A DNA stretch of 64,000 nucleotides from IMG/VR virus record IMGVR_UViG_3300009548_000002. The stretch is one strand, 5' to 3'. The notes beneath the pieces were generated by a model. The model ran no database searches and was not told where the DNA came from. It was given only the letters and a program-made list of their open reading frames with translations. Position numbers and translations under genes: made by a program. Positions 9,612 through 50,057 of the stretch are shown here, in pieces. Each line of letters begins with the position of its first letter. Within the stretch, counting starts at the first letter, position 1. The stretch is from a virus.

Positions 9612-10801
9612 TGAGTGACGAACGAGAAAAATATTTCGTCCCTGAGAACGAGGTCGCTGGGAGCCGGCGCGAACACCTCTCGCCGTCGGGAAAATACAAA
9701 CTCGTCGTGTCGTCCTTCTCGACGCGCGAAGGCGGATGGAGCTACACGCGCGGCAAAGCCTTCAAGATCGGCTCGGATGAACCCATCGCTGTCGTCGATC
9801 GCAATTACTCGGCGTTCCCGTTCTCGTGGATCGAAGATCATCCGAACGGACACGCCTTCCTCATCGCGGGTGAGGATTACCAAGGACAGACCGTCGTCGA
9901 GCTGGATACCGGCAAGCGCCGCGACCACCTCGGCGAAGAGGCCGAGCAGGGTATCGAGTTCTGCTGGTCCGAGCACCGGTTCGATCCGAAGAGCATGCTG
10001 CTCGTCGTGTGCGGCTGCTACTGGGCATGCCCGTACGAGTTCCGCGTCTTCGACTTCATGAACCCGATGGCGGGATGGCCCGAACTCGAGATGTTCGGAC
10101 CGAGCGCCGAGAAAGACGATCGCGAATGGGTCGAGGAAGATCGCAAGTGGCCCGAGATCGTCGCTCCTGATTTGGCAACGCTTGGCCCGACCTTCGTTCG
10201 CACTTTCCAGACGGCGAATTACGACGAAGACGAAGACGAGAGCGACAAGGACGACGAAAGCAACAAGAGCGAGAAGGCGAAGAAGAACCCGGCAGAGATC
10301 CGCGCGATCAAGACTTTCAAACGCGTGGGTCCGAGGCTCATCTTGCAAGACGAATGGGTCTCGGAAGCCGAGAAGAAGTCGCGCCACGAGCGCGAAGAGG
10401 GTCGCAAGAAATACGAGGCCGAGGTCGCCGCCTTCCGCGCGAGCGACCCGCTCTACCTCGCGTACATGAACGAGCTGAACGCGTTCAGGCTCACATGCGA
10501 CGCGGACCATGAGCCCGAAGAACACGATTGGCACGGCATCACACACGACACTTGGTGTCCCGACTTCAAGAAGAAAGAGCGCCGGTGGGGTCGCCGCATT
10601 TACCAGCGAAAACGCAACGAGGCCGGCGTTCTCGAGTCCAGTAACCCCACGATCGAACTCGAATGGGCCGTAGAGACAGGCCCCGTCAAGCTCACGGTGT
10701 GGCACGGCGACGACGGCCCGAAGGTCGAACTCTTCTACGAGCACTCTGTAGATGGAATTCAGAAAGCGTTCGCGCGAGCGCGTGAAGAGATCGCGCGTTG
10801 A
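9611..10801 (+). CDS. Hypothetical protein, about 396 aa, acidic central linker
   Basis: Start MSDEREKYF overlaps the upstream stop; strong GC3 throughout. Confidence 0.6.
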   Translation: MSDEREKYFVPENEVAGSRREHLSPSGKYKLVVSSFSTREGGWSYTRGKAFKIGSDEPIAVVDRNYSAFPFSWIEDHPNGHAFLIAGEDYQGQTVVELDTGKRRDHLGEEAEQGIEFCWSEHRFDPKSMLLVVCGCYWACPYEFRVFDFMNPMAGWPELEMFGPSAEKDDREWVEEDRKWPEIVAPDLATLGPTFVRTFQTANYDEDEDESDKDDESNKSEKAKKNPAEIRAIKTFKRVGPRLILQDEWVSEAEKKSRHEREEGRKKYEAEVAAFRASDPLYLAYMNELNAFRLTCDADHEPEEHDWHGITHDTWCPDFKKKERRWGRRIYQRKRNEAGVLESSNPTIELEWAVETGPVKLTVWHGDDGPKVELFYEHSVDGIQKAFARAREEIAR

Positions 10802-12333
10802 GCTTTCCCTTCCTTCACCGCGAGACGCCCTCGGTCGTGCGCGTCCTTCATCCGGACATCGACATCAAGCTTTTCGCGAACGAGTCGGTCTCCGTGGAGG
10901 CCGACGCATTCGAGCAGCTCATCGAGTTCGCCGACGTGGCCCGCGCGATCCGAGAAGTTCGTGAGCGGGACACGCGCGGCGCCGGCGATCCGTTCTTCGG
11001 CGACGCCGCGCCCGCGATCGAACGCGTCGTGCTCACGCCGGACTTTCACAAAGGCTCGGGCATTCCCGTCGGCACGGTGGTTCAGGCAAAGAACGTCGTC
11101 ATCCCGCAAGCGATTGGCAACGACGTCTGCTGCGGGATGCGGCTCCTCGCGACCGATCTGCCGGCCGAGTCCCTCGAGCCGCACTGGCCCGCGATCCAGA
11201 AGCGTCTCCGCGCGATCTTCTTCGAGGGCGAACGCGACATCCCGATGTCGCCGCGGCAGCGCGAAGCGGTCCTCCGTCATGGCCTACCAGGTCTTGTGGA
11301 CACGTCGGACGACAATCTCACGCGAGGGATCTGGCAGCGCTTCGATCCGAAGTCGCAGCGGGATGACGTCCACCACGTGCACGGCGGCGGGATCCTTCCG
11401 ACAAGGAGACTCTTCGGGTTCGAGAACTTCATCCGCTCGTCGGGCAACATCGACGGCCGCGACCCGCAGATCGGATGCGTCGGCGGCGGCAATCACTTCG
11501 TCGAGATCCAGCGCATCGACGCGCTCTACGAGGGCCACGCGGCTCGCGCGTGGAACCTCGTCCGCGGCAACGTCGCCATCATGGTGCACTCGGGCTCCGT
11601 CGGGATCGGGCACGCTGTCGGTGGGCACTTTATGGATCGCGCGCGCGAGATCTTCCCGAGCGACATCGCGTCGCCGAAAGGCGGCTTCTTCCCACTGCCG
11701 ACGGAAGGACCGAGATGCGAAGAGGGACTCTTCTATCTCGACGGGATGGGGAACGCTGCGAACTTCGCCTTCGCGAACCGGCTCTTTTTGGGTCTCATGG
11801 CTCTTCGCGCCATCGAAGAGGCGACAGGGCTCAGTATCGATGCGCGGCTCGTTTACGACGCGCCCCACAACCTCGTCTTCAAGGACAACGAGTCGTGCCT
11901 CCATCGCAAAGGCGTAACCCCGGCGCACGGGCCAACGGACGACGGCCAAGGTTCCGAGTGGCTCGGCAAGCCTGTCATCATCCCGGGGTCCATGGGCGCG
12001 CCGAGCTACCTTCTCGCGGGCGAGGAGAACGATGAAGCACTCTCAAGCGCGTGTCACGGCGCCGGCCGGAGTCTCTCACGCGGAAAAGCGGCACATGTTC
12101 CGCGCTCCGAGTACCTCGAATCCGTGGAGCGCCTCCGCATCGTCGGGCCCGTCGATCCGAAGTCGCCGATGATGCGAATGAGGAAAGACATTCTCGATAA
12201 ATACGAGAAGCGCATGATGGAGGAGGCGCCTTACGCCTATAAACCCATCGAGCCCGTCATCGACTCTGTCGTGGACGCGCACGTTGCGCAGCGTGTGGCG
12301 AAGCTCTTCCCGCTCTGCACCGTGAAAGGGTGA
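10798..12333 (+). CDS. rtcB: RtcB-family RNA ligase (joins 3'-phosphate/2',3'-cyclic phosphate to 5'-OH)
   Basis: RtcB metal/GMP motif series: DVCCGMR, GGGNHFVEIQ, HSGSVGIGH, LHRKG, CHGAGR; TTG start overlapping the upstream TGA. Confidence 0.9.
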   Translation: MSFPFLHRETPSVVRVLHPDIDIKLFANESVSVEADAFEQLIEFADVARAIREVRERDTRGAGDPFFGDAAPAIERVVLTPDFHKGSGIPVGTVVQAKNVVIPQAIGNDVCCGMRLLATDLPAESLEPHWPAIQKRLRAIFFEGERDIPMSPRQREAVLRHGLPGLVDTSDDNLTRGIWQRFDPKSQRDDVHHVHGGGILPTRRLFGFENFIRSSGNIDGRDPQIGCVGGGNHFVEIQRIDALYEGHAARAWNLVRGNVAIMVHSGSVGIGHAVGGHFMDRAREIFPSDIASPKGGFFPLPTEGPRCEEGLFYLDGMGNAANFAFANRLFLGLMALRAIEEATGLSIDARLVYDAPHNLVFKDNESCLHRKGVTPAHGPTDDGQGSEWLGKPVIIPGSMGAPSYLLAGEENDEALSSACHGAGRSLSRGKAAHVPRSEYLESVERLRIVGPVDPKSPMMRMRKDILDKYEKRMMEEAPYAYKPIEPVIDSVVDAHVAQRVAKLFPLCTVKG

Positions 12334-27326: not shown

Positions 27327-27727
27327 CGAGCATCCTTCTTCAGGCGACGAAGCTTCTCGAACACGGTGTAGTCGGGCGCCGCTCCCAATTCGATCCAGCG
27401 CCCGACCGTGCGATCCGGATCCTCTTCGACCCGATCGCCGAACGGGATCGAATCCATTTCCCAGTCCGCGGGCAAGTACGAGAGGCTCCTCACGGCGGTC
27501 TCCGGTTCGCCGCGTTCGATGGACTCGGTGTTCGAGATCCTCTCCGCCGACGCAGCGTCGTCCGCGACGATCACGACCTCGTACGTGAGCTGGACGATGA
27601 AGAGCTGCTTCACGTCAGATGTTCCTTCTCTCGAAGCAGGATCGGCATGGCTACCTCGTCTTCCTTTTTCGGGCCACGACCCTACCACGATTGTCGTCCG
27701 GTGCCGATGCTGCAATGATACGACCAT
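27323..27727 (-). CDS. Hypothetical protein
   Basis: Track ORF (start uncertain). Confidence 0.35.
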   Translation of the reverse strand: MVVSLQHRHRTTIVVGSWPEKGRRGSHADPASREGTSDVKQLFIVQLTYEVVIVADDAASAERISNTESIERGEPETAVRSLSYLPADWEMDSIPFGDRVEEDPDRTVGRWIELGAAPDYTVFEKLRRLKKDAR

Positions 27728-27739
27728 CGCGCGCGGCGC

Positions 27740-27943
27740 TTGACCTCGCGGTGCAAAGAAGTTAGGTACAGTTACGTGATGAAATACTTCGTGATGCTCG
27801 TCGGCCCGGACGGCAAACCCCTCCCGATGGTGGACGAAGACGGGAGCGTCACGCTCTTCGACTCCGAGGACGACGCCGAGAAGGCCGGCGCCGAGAACAT
27901 CCTTGGCGGCGGGCGCGGCTACGAGGTCTACCCATGGGACTGA
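27740..27943 (+). CDS. Hypothetical small protein (start likely MKYFVMLVG about 27779)
   Basis: Track ORF. Confidence 0.4.
   Translation: MTSRCKEVRYSYVMKYFVMLVGPDGKPLPMVDEDGSVTLFDSEDDAEKAGAENILGGGRGYEVYPWD
27745..27775 (+). promoter_or_regulatory. Sigma70-like promoter candidate: TTGACC, 17-nt spacer, TAGGTA
   Basis: Read directly, upstream of + operon start about 27779; CAGTTAC element shared with other candidates. Confidence 0.35.
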
Positions 27944-28113
27944 AGGCCAGGATCGTCTTCGAAGACGGCGATCGCTCCTCCTCGGATCGCCATTACGTGG
28001 CCATCTTCCTCGGCAGAGACAAGATCGCCGAGAGCCGCTCGATGAGCGAGAAGGACTGCGAGAAGCTCTGCAAGCGCATCAACGACGCCATCGCCAAGGA
28101 ACGCGAGGCCTGA
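27934..28113 (+). CDS. Small protein, about 59 aa (below track cut-off)
   Basis: Hand translation: MGLKARIVFEDGDRSSSDRHYVAIFLGRDKIAESRSMSEKDCEKLCKRINDAIAKEREA; ATGA overlaps on both sides. Confidence 0.35.
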   Translation: MGLKARIVFEDGDRSSSDRHYVAIFLGRDKIAESRSMSEKDCEKLCKRINDAIAKEREA

Positions 28114-29288
28114 TGCTGAGCGATCTGCGCGCCTTTGAAGTCGTGCTCGCGCGCGCCACGTGTCCCGAGGACGTGTTCGGCGTGGCCCTGAACCTCGCCG
28201 CGCTGAAGAAGTCCTTCCACCACATCGCCGTCGTCGTGCATCCGGACAAGTACGCCACCGATGCCGCCACGTCCCGACTCGCGCAAGACCTCTTCGCCAA
28301 GCTCGTCGTCTGGATGAACAGCGCCGAGCACAAAATGGAGCGCGGGACCTACGGCGACCGCGCGCCGCACGAGCCTGCCCCGCCCCCGAAGCCGAAGACC
28401 GCTCTGCAGATCATCGAGACCCCGAAGCGCCGCTACGTCGTCAAGGACCTCCTCGCGCAGGGCGACGTCGCCGACGTCTACGCCTGCACGTACGTGGACA
28501 AGGGCCGGAGCGGCGACGGCGATCACCCCGCCGCGTTCAAGATCGCCCAGAGCGCCGCGGACAACGACCTCATGGAGAACGAGTCGCGCACGCTCTCGGC
28601 GATGTACCCGCCCGCACAAAAAGAAGAACGCTTCTACCGCTACCTCCCGAAGCCGGTCGACTCGTTCCTCCTGAAGTCGGGTGGCGGCGCCGCGCGACGC
28701 GTGAACGTGATGCAGCTCGCGGAGGGTTACGTCTCGCTCGCCGAGGTCATGGCGGCGTACCCGCACGGCCTTGACTACAAAGATGTCGTCTGGATGCTGA
28801 AGCGAAATTTGGCGGCCCTATGGTACTGCCACAGGCAGAAGCTTGTCGTCCACGGCTGCATTATTCCTACAAACCTATTGGTCCATCCGACCGGACACGG
28901 CGCAAAGGTTGTTGACTGGTGCTACGCCGTTCGCGACTGGCCGAACGACAAGGACCACGTCAAAGCGATCAGCAAGGCGTGGAGGGCATACTACGCGCCC
29001 GAGATCCTCGCGAAAAAGCCGCCGACGCCGTCGGCCGACCTCTACATGCTCGCGAAGATCGTCGTGAAGCTCCTCGGCGGTGAAGTCGCGGAAAGCTCGC
29101 CCTCTTTCCTCATCCCCGATGCTGTTCCGAAACCGATTCGATCGTTTCTCTCGGGCATGCTCCTCATGAACCCAGCCCGTCGCCCCGACGACGGCGGCAA
29201 GCTCCACGAGGAGTTCGACGAGCTGCTCCTCAAGCTCGTGGGCAAGCCCAAGTACAGGCCGCTCGTCATGCCCGCGAGGACCGCGTGA
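28113..29288 (+). CDS. J-domain (DnaJ-like) fused to a protein-kinase-like domain with non-canonical catalytic motifs
   Basis: J-domain HHIAVVVHPDKYATDAA...LFAKLVVWMN; kinase-like AAFKIAQ, ENESRTL, VVHGCIIPTNLLVH (HRD replaced by HGC), VVDWCYA (DFG replaced by DWC), YYAPEIL, DLYMLAKIVVKLLGG. Confidence 0.65.
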   Translation: MLSDLRAFEVVLARATCPEDVFGVALNLAALKKSFHHIAVVVHPDKYATDAATSRLAQDLFAKLVVWMNSAEHKMERGTYGDRAPHEPAPPPKPKTALQIIETPKRRYVVKDLLAQGDVADVYACTYVDKGRSGDGDHPAAFKIAQSAADNDLMENESRTLSAMYPPAQKEERFYRYLPKPVDSFLLKSGGGAARRVNVMQLAEGYVSLAEVMAAYPHGLDYKDVVWMLKRNLAALWYCHRQKLVVHGCIIPTNLLVHPTGHGAKVVDWCYAVRDWPNDKDHVKAISKAWRAYYAPEILAKKPPTPSADLYMLAKIVVKLLGGEVAESSPSFLIPDAVPKPIRSFLSGMLLMNPARRPDDGGKLHEEFDELLLKLVGKPKYRPLVMPARTA

Positions 29289-29315: not shown

Positions 29316-29666
29316 ATGTGTGATGACAGCCCGAGCAGTTACCGAACGAATGCGAAGGCTCCCGAGACAGAGCGCTTGTCTCGAAGACCTTGGCTTCTTC
29401 GACGGCGCTCTTGGCAGCTCTACACGCTCGGCAGCGTCATCGGCGTCGCGTTCGGCCTACTGCCGATGTATCTCGAGCATCGGTATTATCCGTCTTCGCC
29501 TCAGCCTTCACCGCTTCCAGCGAAGCCTGCACCCACGTGCAAGGATTCGTTCGAGTGGATCACCGATCGGTGCGACGAACCGTTGAAGCACACCTGCGAG
29601 CCTGGACAGAAGCTGGAAATGCCGAAGGAAGGCACCAGTACGTACATGATCTGCCGCTGCAAGTGA
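29316..29666 (+). CDS. Small Cys-rich membrane/secreted protein
   Basis: TM stretch LYTLGSVIGVAFGLLPMYL; six Cys in the C-terminal half. Confidence 0.4.
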   Translation: MCDDSPSSYRTNAKAPETERLSRRPWLLRRRSWQLYTLGSVIGVAFGLLPMYLEHRYYPSSPQPSPLPAKPAPTCKDSFEWITDRCDEPLKHTCEPGQKLEMPKEGTSTYMICRCK

Positions 29667-30217: not shown

Positions 30218-31243
30218 GTGACGAAGACAAAGAAGGAGACCGACCCCATGGGCTACAGCACGTACAGCGACGACTTCTACAAGGACCGTGTCGCGACCCG
30301 CGCCGCGACCGGGACCCCGACGTTCGTTCACGACGCGGACATCCGCGCGGGCAAGACGGCGGCGAAGGTCCACGAGTCCCTCAACATTCACGGCAAAATC
30401 CGTGAGGCGCGCGACTCCAAGGAGCATCCGAACTCAACGCCCATCGCCGTCATCTTCGACGAGACCGGTTCCATGGCCGGCGTGCCGAGGATCATGCAAC
30501 AGAAACTCCCGCAGCTCATGGGCCTGCTACTCCGGAAAGCGTACATCGAGGACCCGCAGGTGCTCTTCGGCGCGATCGGCGACTACACCTGCGGCGAAGT
30601 CGCGCCGCTCCAGATCGGGCAGTTCGAGAGCGGCATCGAGATGGATGACAACATCACCCACATTTTCCTCGAAGGCGGCGGCGGCGGGTCGTACGAGGAG
30701 TCGTACCAGAACGCGCTCTACTTCTTCGCGCACCGCACGAAGTGCGACGCGTTCGAGAAGCGCGGCAAGCGCGGCTACCTTTTTCTCATTGGAGATGAGA
30801 TGGCGTACGGCCTCTCCACGAAAGCGGAACTCCAAACGCTCATCGGCGACGGTGCGCAGGGCGACGTGTCGCTCGATGACATCATGACGGCCGTCAAAGA
30901 AAAGTGGGACGTCTTTTTCGTCATCCCGAAAGGCACGAACCACTTTGGTGACAAGAAGCTCGAAGACTTCTGGAAGAAGCACCTCGGCCAGAACGTCATC
31001 AAGCTCGAAGACCCCGAGGCGATCTGCGAAGTCATCGGCGCGGCCATCGGCATCTGCGAGGGCACGACGACGGCGGACGCGCTCTCCGCGGACCTCAAGG
31101 ACGTCGGCGCACGCGACTCGATCGTGCACGTCGCGACGTCAAGCGTCGACGCCATCGCGAAGGATCGCGCGCTCGCGGTGACGGGGAGTGGCGGGTCGCT
31201 TCCCGCGAAGACAGGACGCTCGGACAAAAACGAGCGTCTCTAG
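30218..31243 (+). CDS. von Willebrand factor A (vWA) domain protein
   Basis: MIDAS-like IAVIFDETGSM followed by a Rossmann-like hydrophobic/acidic pattern. Confidence 0.6.
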   Translation: MTKTKKETDPMGYSTYSDDFYKDRVATRAATGTPTFVHDADIRAGKTAAKVHESLNIHGKIREARDSKEHPNSTPIAVIFDETGSMAGVPRIMQQKLPQLMGLLLRKAYIEDPQVLFGAIGDYTCGEVAPLQIGQFESGIEMDDNITHIFLEGGGGGSYEESYQNALYFFAHRTKCDAFEKRGKRGYLFLIGDEMAYGLSTKAELQTLIGDGAQGDVSLDDIMTAVKEKWDVFFVIPKGTNHFGDKKLEDFWKKHLGQNVIKLEDPEAICEVIGAAIGICEGTTTADALSADLKDVGARDSIVHVATSSVDAIAKDRALAVTGSGGSLPAKTGRSDKNERL

Positions 31244-31807: not shown

Positions 31808-32008
31808 ATGTTTTTGGCGATGAAGTCCAGATCTCGATCTCGATCGCTCACGCAGGAGGAGCGAGAAGAGGCGCGTCGGCGCGAGCATGCGTACCGTGAG
31901 GCATGCAGGCTCGAGGACGAAGCGAACGTCGTCATCAAGCCGCTCACGTGGTGGAGACGCTTCTTCTTGTGGCTTGGCAAGACCTTCACCCGATGGGGAG
32001 CGACGTAA
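31808..32008 (+). CDS. Hypothetical small basic protein
   Basis: Track ORF. Confidence 0.3.
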   Translation: MFLAMKSRSRSRSLTQEEREEARRREHAYREACRLEDEANVVIKPLTWWRRFFLWLGKTFTRWGAT

Positions 32009-32011
32009 ACA

Positions 32012-33396
32012 TGGCGAACATCACCCTCGTCCTCGGTCTCGGATTTGGCGATGAAGGCAAAGGCGGCTGCGTAGATTTTTTGGCGCGTCACCACGACGCT
32101 CGGCTCGTCGTGCGGTTCAACGGTGGAGCGCAAGCGGGTCATAATGTCATCGACCCAAACGGACAGCACCACTGCTTCTCGCAGTGGGGATCGGGTACCT
32201 TCGCGGGCGCGCGGACGCTCCTGTCGCGGCACGTGCTCGTGAATCCGATCTTCGCCGAGAGCGAGGCGAGGCACCTCGAGTCCGCCGGCGTCCGGGATCC
32301 CTACGCGCTCCTCTCGGTCGAGCGACTCGCGCCCGTCACGACGCCGTTCCACGTCGCCGCGAACCGGTGCCGCGAGCTTTCGAGGCAAGCGGCGAGCGGC
32401 AGCGTGCACGGGAGCTGCGGCATGGGCGTCGGCGAGACGATGGAGGATCTCGTGGAGGGGAGAGAGACCGTTTGGGTGCGCGACTTCGAGGACGACACCC
32501 CGACGCTCAAGCGGAGACTCTTCCGCATCCAGGAGCGGAAGCGCTCCGAAGTCCTCCAGCTCGCGGCCCTCGATCGCCGCTCCCCGCGCGTCCTCCAAGA
32601 ACTCTTTGTGCTCGAGGACCCGAGCATCGTCGACGCCGTCTGCGCGTCGTACACGAAGTTCGCCCGTAAAGCGTCGATCGTGAATCAAGATTTCCTCGAG
32701 CGCGAGCTGGACGCTCCCGGCCACGTCGTTTTCGAGGGCGCGCAGGGCGTCCTCCTCGACGAGTGGTGGGGCTTCCACCCGCACACGACGTGGAGCACGT
32801 GCACCTTCGACAACGCGACGGAGATCCTCGGCGCCGAGCGCGCGGGCCGCGCTCGGCGCATCGGGGTGCTCCGCACGTTCCACACGAGGCACGGAGCCGG
32901 CCCCTTTCCGACGGAGAATAAGAGCATGGACGCGCTCTCGGCGGACGACCACAACAAGCGCGACCCTTGGCAACACGATTTCCGCACCGGAGCCTTCGAC
33001 CTCCTCCTCGCGCGGTACGCGCTCGACGTGTGCGGCGGGTGCGACGGCCTCGCCTTCACGCACCTCGACAAGCTCGAACGGCGCGCGAGCCTACCCGTCG
33101 CCATCGGGTACTACGTGGACGGCGCCAAGATGGTGCGCATCCCGCACCGGCGCCCGAACGATCTCCAATACCAAGAGCGACTCGGCCGGCAGCTCGCACA
33201 AGCGCAACCCATCTATGCCTCCGCGGATCTTGGCGGCGAGCGCATCGCCATGCTCCACGTGGAAGGACTCGCCGAAATGCTCGAGACTCCGCTTGCGATC
33301 ATCTCACGCGGCAAGACCGCTGCAGACAAGATCACTTTGGGTGAAGGCGCGCATGCTTCCCCGCGCCCGCAGTTCTCCACGCCGCCACCCAACTGA
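32012..33396 (+). CDS. Adenylosuccinate synthetase-family enzyme (PurA/PurZ-like), divergent in substrate-binding motifs
   Basis: GLGFGDEGKGG P-loop; GGAQAGHNV; FEGAQGVLLDEWWG; HTRHGAGPFPTE. The IMP loop reads GSCGMGVGE (canonical TTGRGIGP), the aspartate loop WQHDFRTG (canonical RRRRTG), and the guanine motif THLD (canonical TKLD). Start at MANITLVLG inside track ORF 31903-33396. Confidence 0.85.
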
Positions 33397-44216: not shown

Positions 44217-45123
44217 TCACGTCTCGGCGCGCTTGCGCCGGACAAGCTCGGTGACGAGGCCCGCGGAAGGACCGTGCGCGCGAAAGTAGACGATGGATTT
44301 TCTTCCCGGCCTCGCGCAGAGTTGGCACTCGAGGCACGTGAGCTTATGCGTCTGCGCTGGGCACGAGACGAGCTTGCGGCCCTCGGGCGTCCGGTCCGGG
44401 ACCTCCGCGCGCTCGGGCACGACGACCACGACGGGCGCAATGCCGAGCCCAGCCGCGGCGTCCGCCTCTTCGATTGAATCGGTCGAGAGGTTCACGACGA
44501 ACCCTTGCCGCGTGGCCTCGGTGATCGCGCGCCGGTTCTTCTTCCGGACGAGCACCTGCCACACCTTCGGAAGGACCGGCTTGTGCGTGAACGTGAAGCC
44601 GCGTCGTCCCGCTTGGGCGCGTGCGAGCTGCTGGAGCCTGCCCATGTCGATGGCGTTGCCCTCGCCAGGGAGATCGCCTGCCTCGTTGAAGCGCCAGAGC
44701 GTTCCTTCCTCGAGCGCAGCGACCTCGCAGAGGAAGTCGTCCCACGGCATGCCGCGCTCGCGGACGCGATCCCAATGGTAGCGATCGAAACCGTTGTCGG
44801 CGTAGCAGCCGGCCTCGTAGAACATGCACGCGGGCGGGCACGTCCCGCGCTCGGAGTACGTCGTCGGGATGGGTCCGAGCTTACGATTCCCGCTCCGGGG
44901 GACGAAGGAGATGCGTCCGGCGCTCGCGGCATCTTTCCTCTTCGGTCTCGCGTCGAGCTTCTCCGCGGGAGTCTTCCGCTCCCAGTCGCCGTATCGCTTG
45001 TTGCGCTTGTCGCTGCATGCGTTGCAGAGCGCGTCATGCTCGCGTCCGCGCCGGACGAACGCCGCGCGGGGTTTGTTTCGGTGGCAGCGCGCGCAATTTT
45101 TGGCCGCCGTGGACCCCGCCCTC
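44217..45123 (-). CDS. Zinc-finger protein, about 302 aa, encoded immediately downstream of the HDAC-like gene
   Basis: CARCHRN...CNACSD at the N-terminus; GTCPPACMFYEAGCYADNGF; LTCLECQLC; N-terminal extension of track ORF 44217-45803 rejected. Confidence 0.5.
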
Positions 45124-46015
45124 ATGGCTCTTTTTCGCAGTAGACGCGCGCGCACTCGCGCATCGTGTTGTCGTGGACCTCGAGCACTTTCGGGATGCTT
45201 CCGTCCTTCTCTCGCTGGTAGCCGCCGGCGAGGTTCCACGCGACGGGGATCTCGGCGGCGGGGATCTCGGCGGCGGAGAGCGCGTCGAAGACGATCGCGT
45301 CGCGCCGCCGAAGTTGCTCGGTCGTGAGCCAGCCGCCGTACGGGTCGTCGATGTGCGGGTCGGCGCCGGCTTGGTAAAGGACGACGTCCACCTTGTCGAG
45401 GATCATGTGCGCGAGGACCTCGGGGAGTCCCTCGTCGAGGAACGCCTCCGCCTGATCGGGCCTCGTCCAGTTGAGGCCCGCGGTGAAGTGCGTGATCCAA
45501 TCCGCACCGAAGCGGTTCTTGATGTTCACGGTGCCGTTGCCGTAGTGCATGTCGAGGTCGAGGATGCCGACGCGCGGGATGCCGTCCGCCTTCAACGCGA
45601 AGGCGGCGACCATGAGGCCGTTGAACGTGCAAAAGCCCTCCGCGCTCGCGTAGCCCGCGTGGTGGAAACCCGAGCACGGCGCCGCGGCCGCGGCGCCGGT
45701 CGAGATCGCGAGGCGTGCCGCCTGGAGCATCGCGCCGGACGTGTACGGGAGCGCGGCGGCGACCTCGGGCGACTTGTTGCCGAAGCCGTTGGGCTTTTTG
45801 CATCTGAGGATGTCTTCAGCCCAGTCGACCGCATGCACACGCGCGTAATCGCTGAGCGTCACGGGCCGCGGTTCGAGGATCGTGATCGGGAATTTGTTCT
45901 GCCACGAGGCCACGACCTCCTTCGGCTTCTTCGCGCTCGGAGACTCGCAACCGGAATCGGCGACCATCTTCGGCGTGTAGAAGACCGGAATCTTGAAGAG
46001 CTTGCCTCTCGCCAT
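45122..46015 (-). CDS. Histone-deacetylase-family (HDAC/AcuC/acetylpolyamine amidohydrolase) zinc hydrolase
   Basis: HHAGYASAEGFCTFNGL; VGILDLDMHYGNGT (D-x-D-x-H metal site); VVLYQAGADPHIDDPYG; AGGYQ catalytic Tyr. Confidence 0.75.
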   Translation of the reverse strand: MARGKLFKIPVFYTPKMVADSGCESPSAKKPKEVVASWQNKFPITILEPRPVTLSDYARVHAVDWAEDILRCKKPNGFGNKSPEVAAALPYTSGAMLQAARLAISTGAAAAAPCSGFHHAGYASAEGFCTFNGLMVAAFALKADGIPRVGILDLDMHYGNGTVNIKNRFGADWITHFTAGLNWTRPDQAEAFLDEGLPEVLAHMILDKVDVVLYQAGADPHIDDPYGGWLTTEQLRRRDAIVFDALSAAEIPAAEIPVAWNLAGGYQREKDGSIPKVLEVHDNTMRECARVYCEKEP

Positions 46016-48873: not shown

Positions 48874-49294
48874 CTACTCCACCTGCGGGAGGACCCGCTC
48901 CGTCATCGAATCGCGAACGATGATTTCGCCGAAGCGCGAACGCAGTTGGCCATCAGTGGCGCCCGTGAGCAGTTGGATGATCGGACGAAGCACGGAAAGG
49001 CGAACGTGCTCGTCGCTCACGCGCGTCTCATGCGCGATGAAGACGCGCGGGTGCGGGCACACCGCATCTCCCAGCATTTCCCGGACACGCGCGAGCGACC
49101 GCGGGGCGAGAGCGTACGTCTCGCCGTCTCGGCTAGCGCTGCGGTAGACCACCAAGGGTACGCTCGCTCCGCTTGCGGAGAGTTTCTCCTGCGCGAGGCG
49201 CTGGACCTCCCGGAGTTCGCCCGTCTCCTCGAAGAGAGACTCGAGCGGCGATCCGACGTTGGGATGGTTCGGGAGTTTCGGGAAGTTCTTCATG
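48874..49294 (-). CDS. Hypothetical protein, about 140 aa
   Basis: Start MKNFPKLPNH; C-terminal part of ORF 48874-49470. Confidence 0.4.
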
Positions 49295-50057
49295 GCCTTC
49301 TCTGCATGCTTTGCAAATCGATCGAGCTTGCCCGAACAAGTCGATTGCGAAGAAGTGGACGGTTCCGCCAGTGATCGTTGCGAACCTTGGCGTAGCCTTC
49401 CCGATGCGCCTTCATACGTCCAATGATGCCCTGGGCATCCTCCACGCGCACGTAGACGCCCTCCATCCAATCCGAATCGTCCGTCTCATCCATCGGCCGC
49501 GTGATCCCGACGCGTTTGGCTTCTTCAGCCAAAACGCTGCGCCACGCGGGCGTCTTGTAGAAACTCTTCCCGATGAACGAGCCGAACGCCGGCGCTTTCC
49601 CGAACGGGCCCGACCAAAGGCAAGACACGACGACCACGTCGCACGCGGCGAGCAGATCGTCACGATGAGCGACGCCCAGAAACCGTTCGCGTTCCCTGTC
49701 GAAGACGTCGTAGCCGAGCAGCCAGTCGGGGAGCGCGTCGTAATAGGCCTTGTGCTTCGCGAAACACCACTCGCCGTAAAGCACGTAACGACAGCCGAGC
49801 GCGTCGCGAAGGGCGTCCACGCGCTCCGCGGCCCACCCGTGAAAAGGTGCGAATTGCCGCTCTGAAAGTCCACCCCTCAAGATGTGACCACGACTCTGGA
49901 GCCGAATCTCGCCTTCCTCGAACCAGATGCCGACGTTGGCGCCGTCGACCTTCTCCTCCACGACGACGACGCGCGCGTGCTTCCACGCCTCATAGATGTC
50001 CTCGGTCGCGAGCGACGTGAGTCTGGGTGTCTTCGGGAATTTGATCGCGTCGCCCAT
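49290..50057 (-). CDS. ATP-dependent RNA/DNA ligase-family nucleotidyltransferase (probable RNA ligase)
   Basis: Motif I VVVEEKVDGANVGIW (KxDG lysine-adenylate site); YVLYGEWCFAKHKAY resembles motifs IV/V. Confidence 0.6.
   Translation of the reverse strand: MGDAIKFPKTPRLTSLATEDIYEAWKHARVVVVEEKVDGANVGIWFEEGEIRLQSRGHILRGGLSERQFAPFHGWAAERVDALRDALGCRYVLYGEWCFAKHKAYYDALPDWLLGYDVFDRERERFLGVAHRDDLLAACDVVVVSCLWSGPFGKAPAFGSFIGKSFYKTPAWRSVLAEEAKRVGITRPMDETDDSDWMEGVYVRVEDAQGIIGRMKAHREGYAKVRNDHWRNRPLLRNRLVRASSIDLQSMQRRP

Follow-up and report, generated by a model that had tools for sequence, protein, structure and literature searches.

A predicted J-domain pseudokinase of large phages and bacteria encoded next to vWA-like and PurA-like genes

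Does a viral gene really join a J-domain, the module that addresses Hsp70, to a domain with the fold of a protein kinase, and if so, what could such a protein do? The question is raised by a 391-residue protein encoded in a stretch of 64,000 nucleotides from the IMG/VR virus record IMGVR_UViG_3300009548_000002 (hereafter the window), in which the initial annotation, made from the letters of the DNA, had proposed an N-terminal J-domain followed by a kinase-like domain with HGC and DWC in place of the HRD and DFG motifs. J-domain proteins confer specificity on Hsp70, and each new client-binding module amounts to a new chaperone job. Here the client-binding module appears to be a pseudokinase, and the family, with more than 1,500 sequence clusters, is apparently unstudied. 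We found that the window protein is a new member of a family that is catalogued but uncharacterised, and the recognition of this family as a J-domain pseudokinase tied to a cassette with vWA-like and PurA-like genes appears to be new.

All motifs listed in the initial annotation (VVHPDKY, AFKIAQ, ENESRTL, VVHGCIIPTNLLVH, VVDWCYA, YYAPEIL and DLYMLAKIVVKLLGG) are indeed present in the translation. The GC content of the gene by codon position (0.65/0.42/0.86) is typical for the genes of the window, and an identical 391-aa protein (P0001) came out of independent predictions for JGI, Logan and ENA data, where its contigs reach 261.5 kb. Its ATG start codon overlaps the stop codon of a short upstream open reading frame (ORF) in the arrangement TGATG; 54- and 62-aa genes occupy the position of this ORF in a related phage (L109). 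A scan for promoters and terminators returned nothing above the expectation from shuffled sequences. Conservation was analysed in 102 database homologues and in a separate non-redundant set (97 sequences; 43 viral and 54 bacterial loci). The HPD tripeptide, K143, E157, H247-G248, D268-W269, E297, D309 and R357 are invariant or nearly so in the 102 full-length homologues, and therefore the motifs cannot be ascribed to chance. Genes for a terminase, a tail protein, RtcB and several RNA ligases likewise lie in the window, for which no close relative was found among isolated phages; this indicates that it belongs to an uncultured jumbo phage.

The J-domain was identified at the level of the family, since scans of the single sequence against Pfam and NCBIfam made no J-domain call (HscB models, E-value ~0.1). 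A profile of the first 92 residues of 48 family members, compared with the sequences in the PDB at E-value ≤1, matched 79 of them, and all 60 matches listed are J-domain proteins according to their molecule names, with the J-domain of auxilin (E-value 3.7e-7), DNAJC3 and E. coli DnaJ (E-value 5e-6) as the best. Taken individually, 31 of the 48 members match the Pfam DnaJ family (PF00226) with E-values ≤0.01. The family consensus ALxxxYRxLxxVVHPDK...F..L...AE.KI.AGTYGD reproduces the signatures of helix II, helix III and the C-terminal YG of DnaJ, and the H, P and D of the HPD tripeptide are kept in 99, 98 and 99 of the 102 homologues, respectively. AlphaFold2 (AF2) modelled the full chain with a predicted local distance difference test (pLDDT) score of 94.7 and a predicted template modelling (pTM) score of 0.83, and residues 1-92 alone with a pLDDT of 91.8. 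The HPD tripeptide, whose location outside a J-type helical hairpin would have spoken against the proposed domain, was found at the turn between the helix 28-42 and the helix 51-76, i.e. inside the hairpin formed by helices II and III. A Foldseek search of the PDB with the isolated model returned J-domains as nine of the ten top matches (TM 0.4-0.6) at non-significant E-values of ~1, which are usual for a domain as small as this one, and these matches are counted as supporting evidence only. Altogether, the profile matches, the conservation of HPD and the predicted hairpin bear out the proposal of a genuine N-terminal J-domain; residues 1-82 are predicted to make up an entire J-domain whose HPD loop is exposed, and stimulation of DnaK is predicted accordingly from the sequence and the model.

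The kinase fold of the C-terminal part, likewise proposed initially, would have been contradicted by a predicted structure of another kind, but it was recovered as a bilobal structure in the AF2 model. Foldseek identified PknA of Mycobacterium tuberculosis as the top match in the PDB, along with AAK1, GAK, CaMKII and the pseudokinase STK40 (E-values 3e-12 to 1e-10, target TM ~0.7). The Pfam Pkinase model scored 41 bits, above its gathering threshold of 31.7, over residues 219-325 (the C-lobe), while a fold search of BFVD reported only kinases of giant viruses and was uninformative on the architecture. No other Pfam domains were found, and the whole length of 391 residues is accounted for by the J-domain, the linker and the kinase fold (Table 1).

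Inspection of the active site revealed a peculiar mixture of retained and missing residues. The Glu of the APE motif, the Asp of αF and the Arg of the αH-αI region are invariant or nearly so, as are the β3 Lys, the αC Glu and the Asp of DFG. The catalytic Asp of HRD, on the other hand, is missing: when aligned to CaMK1D by phmmer, HGCIIPTNLL falls opposite HRDLKPENLL and YYAPE opposite YVAPE, so that the Lys of HRDxK is absent as well (HGCII aligned to HRDLK). At position 249 the window protein has Cys and 93 of the 97 sequences have Ala (HGA), and never Asp is found. Thus, the HGC reading holds for the window protein, but the family consensus is HGA, and N254, which lines up with the metal-binding catalytic-loop Asn (N171 of PKA), is replaced by His in 94 of the 97 relatives, with Asn in the window protein and in the cluster C phages. 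In the DWC motif, D and W are each found in 92 of 97 sequences and C in 81 (S in 11 viral sequences). The Gly-rich loop, not mentioned in the initial annotation, is degenerate: it reads QGDVADVY, with only G117 of the three glycines kept and a conserved acidic D118 (G-D-x-A-D in the family). Further strictly conserved elements are H247, G248, H262, W269, Y271 and a DND motif at 150-152. A pseudokinase is defined by the loss of any of the β3 Lys, the HRD Asp and the DFG Asp (PMC12599244). By this standard definition the domain is, as judged from its sequence, a pseudokinase, because the HRD Asp is missing, and the alignments place the loss of this residue at the ancestor of the family. The initial framing of the protein as either a pseudokinase or an atypical kinase was therefore apt, and the change is family-wide.

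Table 1. Coordinates of the gene, its domains and motifs, and the neighbouring features (positions in the window)
Feature	Position	Strand	Remarks
J-domain/pseudokinase fusion, whole gene	28113..29288	+	391 aa, no internal stops
J-domain, aa 1-82	28113..28358	+	predicted helix I 4-14, helix II 28-42, helix III 51-76; conserved GTYGD at the end
HPD tripeptide, aa 43-45	28239..28247	+	Hsp70-stimulating motif, loop that follows helix II
Pro-rich linker, aa 83-98, RAPHEPAPPPKPKTAL	28359..28406	+	no secondary structure in AF2, pLDDT 84-89; variable in the family alignment
Protein-kinase-fold domain, aa 99-380	28407..29252	+	Foldseek, Pfam Pkinase
β3 Lys, K143	28539..28541	+	102/102 homologues; 95/97 across loci
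αC Glu, E157	28581..28583	+	100/102 homologues; 96/97 across loci
HGC for HRD, aa 247-249	28851..28859	+	catalytic Asp missing; H and G invariant
N254, position of the metal-binding catalytic-loop Asn (PKA N171)	28872..28874	+	His in most relatives
DWC for DFG, aa 268-270	28914..28922	+	metal-binding Asp kept
APE motif, aa 295-297	28995..29003	+	E297 102/102
Upstream 59-aa ORF	27934..28113	+	stop overlaps the kinase start; same transcription unit
ORF of the "Cys-rich secreted protein"	29316..29666	+	doubtful, not conserved
Small gene, 97 aa	29681..29974	+	82% nucleotide identity to L109:7540-7838 (97-aa gene called)
Partner 1, vWA-like	30248..31243	+	MIDAS-like FDETGSM; phrog_2971, E=1.2e-59; mechanical ORF start 30218
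Partner 2, divergent PurA-like (adenylosuccinate-synthetase family)	32011..33396	+	Pfam Adenylsucc_synt, phrog_1211; mechanical ORF start 31903, likely start 32011

These observations bear directly on the reading implied by the databases, namely that the protein is an ordinary active Ser/Thr kinase that phosphorylates host proteins during takeover, like gp0.7 of phage T7. The annotation "serine/threonine kinase" in GenBank and PHROG, the Pkinase score above the Pfam cut-off and a generic similarity to kinases of defence systems would agree with it, but the Asp that serves as the catalytic base is absent from the window protein and from all 97 relatives, the Lys of HRDxK is gone, the Gly-rich loop is degenerate, and the domain qualifies as a pseudokinase by the standard criterion (PMC12599244). 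Besides, bacterial chromosomes carry the gene as part of a fixed cassette, which speaks against a takeover role specific to phages. We regard this reading as very improbable and as the least likely of those considered. Matches to the PADLOC models PD-T4-6, mad6 and PglW were evaluated as a possible sign of membership in a defence system and discarded as generic Ser/Thr-kinase similarity.

Among Hanks-type Ser/Thr kinases, the domain resembles bacterial members in its fold, with PknA as the top match, in falling under the definition of pseudokinases and in its abundance in Actinomycetota. The bacterial pseudokinase families named so far are ActPs1-3, GLW, CP1, DYD and DLHK (PMC12599244), and their signatures comprise VALT without HRD, GLW, a β3 Arg with HRN, and DLHK with HRD kept (PMC12599244). 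According to these motif descriptions, none of them combines the Lys with HGA and DWC(Y) (PMC12599244), and whereas they have degraded ATP- or metal-binding motifs, the family described here loses only the HRD Asp. The review makes no mention of DnaJ or of a J-domain (PMC12599244).

The strict conservation of K143, E157, D268, H247, H262 and the DND motif favours some function that depends on a ligand. This leads to a second alternative, the main competitor of our preferred reading, in which the kinase-like domain would be an active enzyme with non-canonical chemistry (AMPylation of the SelO type, another nucleotidyl or phosphoryl transfer, or hydrolysis of ATP), the J-domain would dock on DnaK, and the substrate would be DnaK itself, a client bound to DnaK or the vWA-like partner. 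The retention of these six elements together with G248, W269 and Y271, and a His in the N171 position in 94 of 97 sequences, would be unusual for a dead scaffold. There is also a precedent, SelO, which lacks the catalytic Asp and AMPylates proteins with ATP bound in inverted orientation (PMC12409994), and pseudokinases can acquire alternative catalytic functions (PMC12599244). As in SelO, the canonical catalytic Asp is gone and the Lys, the Glu and the metal-binding Asp are kept; unlike for SelO, no shifted catalytic Asp was identified in the J-domain pseudokinase, and no relationship at the level of sequence families exists, as Pfam reports matches of the Pkinase type only and none to SelO or to other atypical enzymes with the kinase fold. 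The degenerate Gly-rich loop with its two acidic residues (GDVAD) also speaks against catalysis, and the proteins of the window and of the cluster C phages have Asn at 254, and at 249 they have Cys or Ala; a His-based catalytic centre would thus not be universal. We therefore consider a non-canonical enzyme possible, though doubtful.

The initial annotation was not aware of this architecture in phages. It is present, however, in 202 records of Mycobacterium phages and in 47 IMG/VR loci, and in bacterial chromosomes as well, with at least 54 bacterial genomes in all. PHROG 3043 ("kinase") covers residues 35-381 (E-value 1.9e-45). A tblastn search retrieved 204 phage records, of which 202 are Mycobacterium phages (Bixzunavirus, cluster C) with the product annotated as "serine/threonine kinase"; the 47 further loci from IMG/VR lie on contigs of 100-500 kb, and a scan of species-representative genomes added 54 bacterial loci, in Actinoplanes/Paractinoplanes, Nocardiopsis, Streptomyces/Actinacidiphila, Glycomyces, Labilithrix luteola, Polyangiales and several metagenome-assembled genomes. 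An exhaustive search with a profile hidden Markov model yielded 1,523 cluster representatives (at 50% identity) with E-values ≤1e-30, most of which align from profile position 1-12 and hence include the J-domain. It is thus a large family of Actinomycetota, Myxococcota and large phages. The cluster C protein gp255 of phage BadAgartude is a true homologue (33% identity over residues 35-387), which shares the HPD, the HG(A/C) and DWCY motifs (HGA in gp255 itself) and the same flanking genes; it differs in its annotation, which presents it as an active kinase and passes over the J-domain. The protein is mis-described as an active Ser/Thr kinase in the genomes of more than 200 sequenced mycobacteriophages; "J-domain-containing pseudokinase" would be a better name. 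Our literature search returned no paper on the fusion or on the gene trio, although a mention in a 2020 survey of bacterial and phage J-domains cannot be excluded. J-like sequences have been noted in mycobacteriophages by Perrody et al., with nothing further (PMC3486835), and the announcement of a cluster C genome lists a separate "DnaJ-like chaperonin", not the J-domain pseudokinase (PMC9583779).

The genomic context of the family is remarkably uniform. The vWA-like gene adjoins the kinase gene in 49 of 51 viral and 54 of 55 bacterial loci, and the PurA-like gene is present in 46 of 51 and 50 of 55, respectively; most of the loci that miss one or both partners end at the edge of a contig or locus. 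The order is kinase, vWA-like, PurA-like, with the exception of one viral sub-clade, in which a kinase without a J-domain comes after the vWA-like and PurA-like genes. BadAgartude has the kinase gp255 first, then gp256 (vWA-like), a small ORF gp257 and the PurA-like gp258; gp256 and gp258 are homologous to the products of 30218-31243 and 31903-33396 of the window, and each of the three cassette proteins matches exactly 202 Mycobacterium phage records. In Labilithrix luteola, the kinase of which carries HPD, HGA and DWCY, the trio is embedded among ordinary chromosomal genes (a sigma-54 activator, LysR, an SDR protein, a histidine kinase and a guanylate cyclase). In 46 bacterial and 8 viral loci, a gene upstream of the trio encodes an NrtR-type protein, with Nudix and winged-helix domains; the window lacks this gene. 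Across the 106 loci analysed, the kinase, vWA-like, PurA-like and NrtR-like genes were the only conserved ones. Of the operon neighbours proposed initially, the gene at 30218-31243 is accordingly conserved, a Cys-rich ORF found no support (see below), and the PurA-like partner had been overlooked.

The likely true start of the vWA-like gene is the ATG at 30248, preceded by AAGGAG. The motifs D81-E-T83-G84-S85 (DxTGS) and D193-E194 (G-D-E) of its product are invariant or nearly so, and the orthologue from Labilithrix is named "VWFA domain-containing protein" in UniRef; the protein, alone or as a profile, had no match in Pfam (33 members), NCBIfam, PADLOC or the sequences of the PDB. The "vWA" label, which rests on these motifs and on the UniRef name, is therefore used here as provisional. 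Some cluster C phages have a vWA-like gene that encodes 594 aa and is split by an insert of ~255 aa (BadAgartude gp256, L001:5020-6801), which begins with a Cys directly after the conserved KRGKKGY and has an intein-like look; tblastn reports the gene in two pieces. A 675-aa protein (P0352) was considered as a kinase-vWA fusion, i.e. as evidence of the Rosetta-stone type, and rejected, as its extension is not vWA-like. P0352 is metagenomic and has no J-domain, and its C-terminal extension of ~380 aa ends with a repeat that, by eye, resembles peptidoglycan-binding repeats; it may be a fusion or an artefact of gene calling.

The PurA-like protein scores 209 bits with Pfam Adenylsucc_synt, over model positions 2-412 of 416, and keeps the P-loop GDEGKG, the GGAQAGH motif and the catalytic His. 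By comparison with the E. coli sequence (an approximate reference), the family has GSCGMGVGET where PurA has the IMP-binding TTGRGIGPAY, and WQx-xFRxG where PurA has the TTGRRRR of the aspartate loop. Judging from these replacements, the enzyme is probably not a standard adenylosuccinate synthetase, and its altered motifs suggest a different substrate. The name "2-aminooxy adenylosuccinate synthetase" (PurZ-type) in PHROG and RefSeq is an automated, unconfirmed label, and neither datZ nor mazZ was seen among the neighbours of the gene.

How could a J-domain, a pseudokinase and these two partners work together? We propose that the protein would act as a class-C J-domain co-chaperone with the pseudokinase as its effector module, serving the partners of the cassette by means of the host DnaK, and give this proposal an even chance. 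Following the known action of J-domains, the HPD loop would dock on host DnaK in its ATP-bound state and trigger the hydrolysis of ATP; the pseudokinase domain, probably with a bound nucleotide, would hold the vWA-like protein, the PurA-like protein or both, as the linkage of the genes suggests; and DnaK would thereby be loaded onto the complex of the partners, which would be assembled, activated or recycled as a result. With a copy of its own, the phage would be able to run the cassette on the Hsp70 of its host. The near-obligate linkage of the genes, seen in jumbo phages as in bacterial chromosomes, suggests a compact system that should be experimentally tractable in cluster C phages and M. 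smegmatis, and that bears on the use of host Hsp70 by phages, the roles of bacterial pseudokinases and the products of the divergent PurA-like enzymes of large phages.

Several points weigh against this proposal. The recruitment of DnaK and the binding of partners are steps inferred from the general behaviour of J-domains and from the gene neighbourhood. The conserved Lys, Glu and Asp of the active site and the new invariant His residues (H247, H262 and, in the family, His 254) would, on the strength of the alignments, suit an enzyme no less than an inert scaffold. With more than 3,662 matches, the vWA-like family far exceeds that of the kinase in size, and Rhizobium and Vibrio phages have the vWA-like and PurA-like pair with no kinase at all, which makes the pseudokinase a frequent accessory of a vWA-like/PurA-like core. 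About 12 viral and a few Streptomyces loci keep the cassette with a kinase that has no J-domain; loss of the J-domain in some lineages implies that the recruitment of Hsp70 would modulate the cassette and be dispensable for its core function. Finally, the single sequence scores only 12.7 bits with Pfam DnaJ, below the cut-off of 27.8.

The last two points would equally suit a third alternative, in which the N-terminal domain, a structural module of J-like shape, has ceased to act on Hsp70 and instead forms an intramolecular or partner-binding bundle packed on the N-lobe of the kinase; the pTM of the whole chain, which suggests a fixed arrangement of the J-domain and the kinase, is in keeping with it. 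J-like domains without an Hsp70 function, however, typically lose the HPD motif, which is essentially invariant here wherever the domain exists, and the YR/K..L of helix II, F61 of helix III and the C-terminal YG conform to the J-domain consensus as well. We consider a purely structural J-like module unlikely and retain the co-chaperone as the preferred reading.

In the kinase-less Rhizobium and Vibrio loci, a conserved protein of 240-263 aa precedes the pair (L107:2777-3568 and L108:3216-3935; in Rhizobium with one small ORF in between). It has a Met/Gly-rich tail of low complexity and may be an alternative third partner. It was evaluated as a diverged kinase and rejected (hhalign probability <1%; Met-rich, low-complexity sequence).

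A broader and more speculative extension, which we put forward with considerable reserve, is that the J-domain pseudokinase, the vWA-like protein and the PurA-like protein would constitute an unrecognised system coupled to Hsp70 in Actinomycetota, Myxococcota and large phages, often under the control of an NrtR-like Nudix regulator in bacteria. The PurA-like enzyme would make or consume a non-canonical nucleotide related to purines or to NAD, and the kinase-fold protein would sense this nucleotide or carry out a modification other than that of a kinase, e.g. AMPylation of DnaK or of the vWA partner. If true, phages would carry the cassette to rewire the nucleotide metabolism of the host or to counter defences that deplete nucleotides.

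NAD-related genes recur near the cassette (L002:4491-8007; L107:1-1269; upstream of the kinase in L052-L106). On a 764-kb contig, genes for NAMPT and an NMNAT-like protein separate NrtR from the kinase, and Rhizobium phage RHph_TM30 has NMNAT/Nudix and phosphoribosyltransferase genes upstream. These neighbours hint at the metabolism of NAD or ADP-ribose.

Among systems already described, the closest in kind is Rki of phage RB43, a class-C J-domain protein encoded by a phage and an ORFan of T4-like phages (PMC3486835). Both proteins have an N-terminal J-domain with HPD and a C-terminal part of their own, and both would be expected to act through host DnaK; Rki, however, has no kinase-like domain, whereas the family described here is shared with bacteria and is part of a three-gene cassette. 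The initial annotation heard in the fusion an echo of eukaryotic GAK and auxilin. Auxilin targets Hsc70 to clathrin. GAK likewise contains a J-domain and a kinase-fold domain in one polypeptide, the J-domain of auxilin is the best match of our J profile in the PDB, and GAK and AAK1 are among the top folds of the kinase part. In GAK and auxilin, though, the J-domain is C-terminal rather than N-terminal, and the kinase of GAK is catalytically intact; no region similar to PTEN or binding clathrin is present in our family. Since nothing indicates a common descent of the two architectures, we treat the likeness as an analogy.

A parallel of another type is offered by MoxR/vWA pairs, where the vWA protein is the adaptor that directs a remodelling ATPase to one enzyme, and by the TerY-P triad of vWA, kinase and PP2C proteins. 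As in these systems, a protein, here the putative vWA-type one with a motif like that of a metal-ion-dependent adhesion site (MIDAS), is encoded next to an ATP-dependent remodeller or a kinase-fold protein; they differ in that neither a MoxR AAA+ protein nor PP2C is found among the conserved neighbours in the 106 loci. The remodelling ATPase would have to be the host DnaK, recruited by the J-domain, and the whole would represent an Hsp70-based version of the pair of vWA adaptor and remodeller.

In the window the cassette is interrupted by ~0.9 kb after the kinase gene. The 97-aa gene in this interval is common only to the closest relative, L109, the kinase of which is 88% identical, and lies outside the conserved cassette. 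The other ORF, annotated initially as a Cys-rich secreted protein, has a weak codon bias, with a GC content by codon position of 0.53/0.53/0.69, compared with the third-position value of 0.86 in the kinase gene, and no similarity to it was found in L109 or in any of the 106 loci, not even where the kinase is 88% identical. The lack of a counterpart and the weak bias make this ORF doubtful, and, to judge by its sequence, it is probably not a gene.

A few other features of the window and its relatives deserve mention. A SEC-C zinc motif (Pfam E-value 2.5e-10) is found at the N-terminus of a 299-aa protein (26427-27326, - strand) that is conserved in L109; its gene lies just upstream of the divergent intergenic region at 27728-27739, from which a 134-aa ORF (27323-27727, - strand) separates it. 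A toolkit for RNA repair and translation comprises an RtcB-type ligase (10798-12333, + strand; phrog_1075, 3e-62), an RNA ligase (49290-50057, - strand; phrog_548) and a small ORF (24038-24451, - strand), the L109 counterpart of which carries Pfam PTH2 (peptidyl-tRNA hydrolase). Two adjacent tRNAs were called by ARAGORN at 42341-42501: the first, a "tRNA-???" of 85 nt, has a four-base anticodon (actc) and no support from Rfam at E-value ≤0.01; the second is a tRNA-Tyr (GTA) with an Rfam score of 56 bits, in which 9 positions are unshown, compared with 7 in the model, at the gap in the anticodon loop. A 297-aa ORF (45122-46015, - strand) encodes a domain of the histone-deacetylase family (Pfam Hist_deacetyl, E-value 1.3e-24), an unusual cargo for a phage. 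Finally, a related 285-kb phage contig (L110:1-2231) encodes, a few kb upstream of the cassette, a protein of more than 864 aa with domains of the major vault protein (MVP_shoulder and, weakly, Vault_3).

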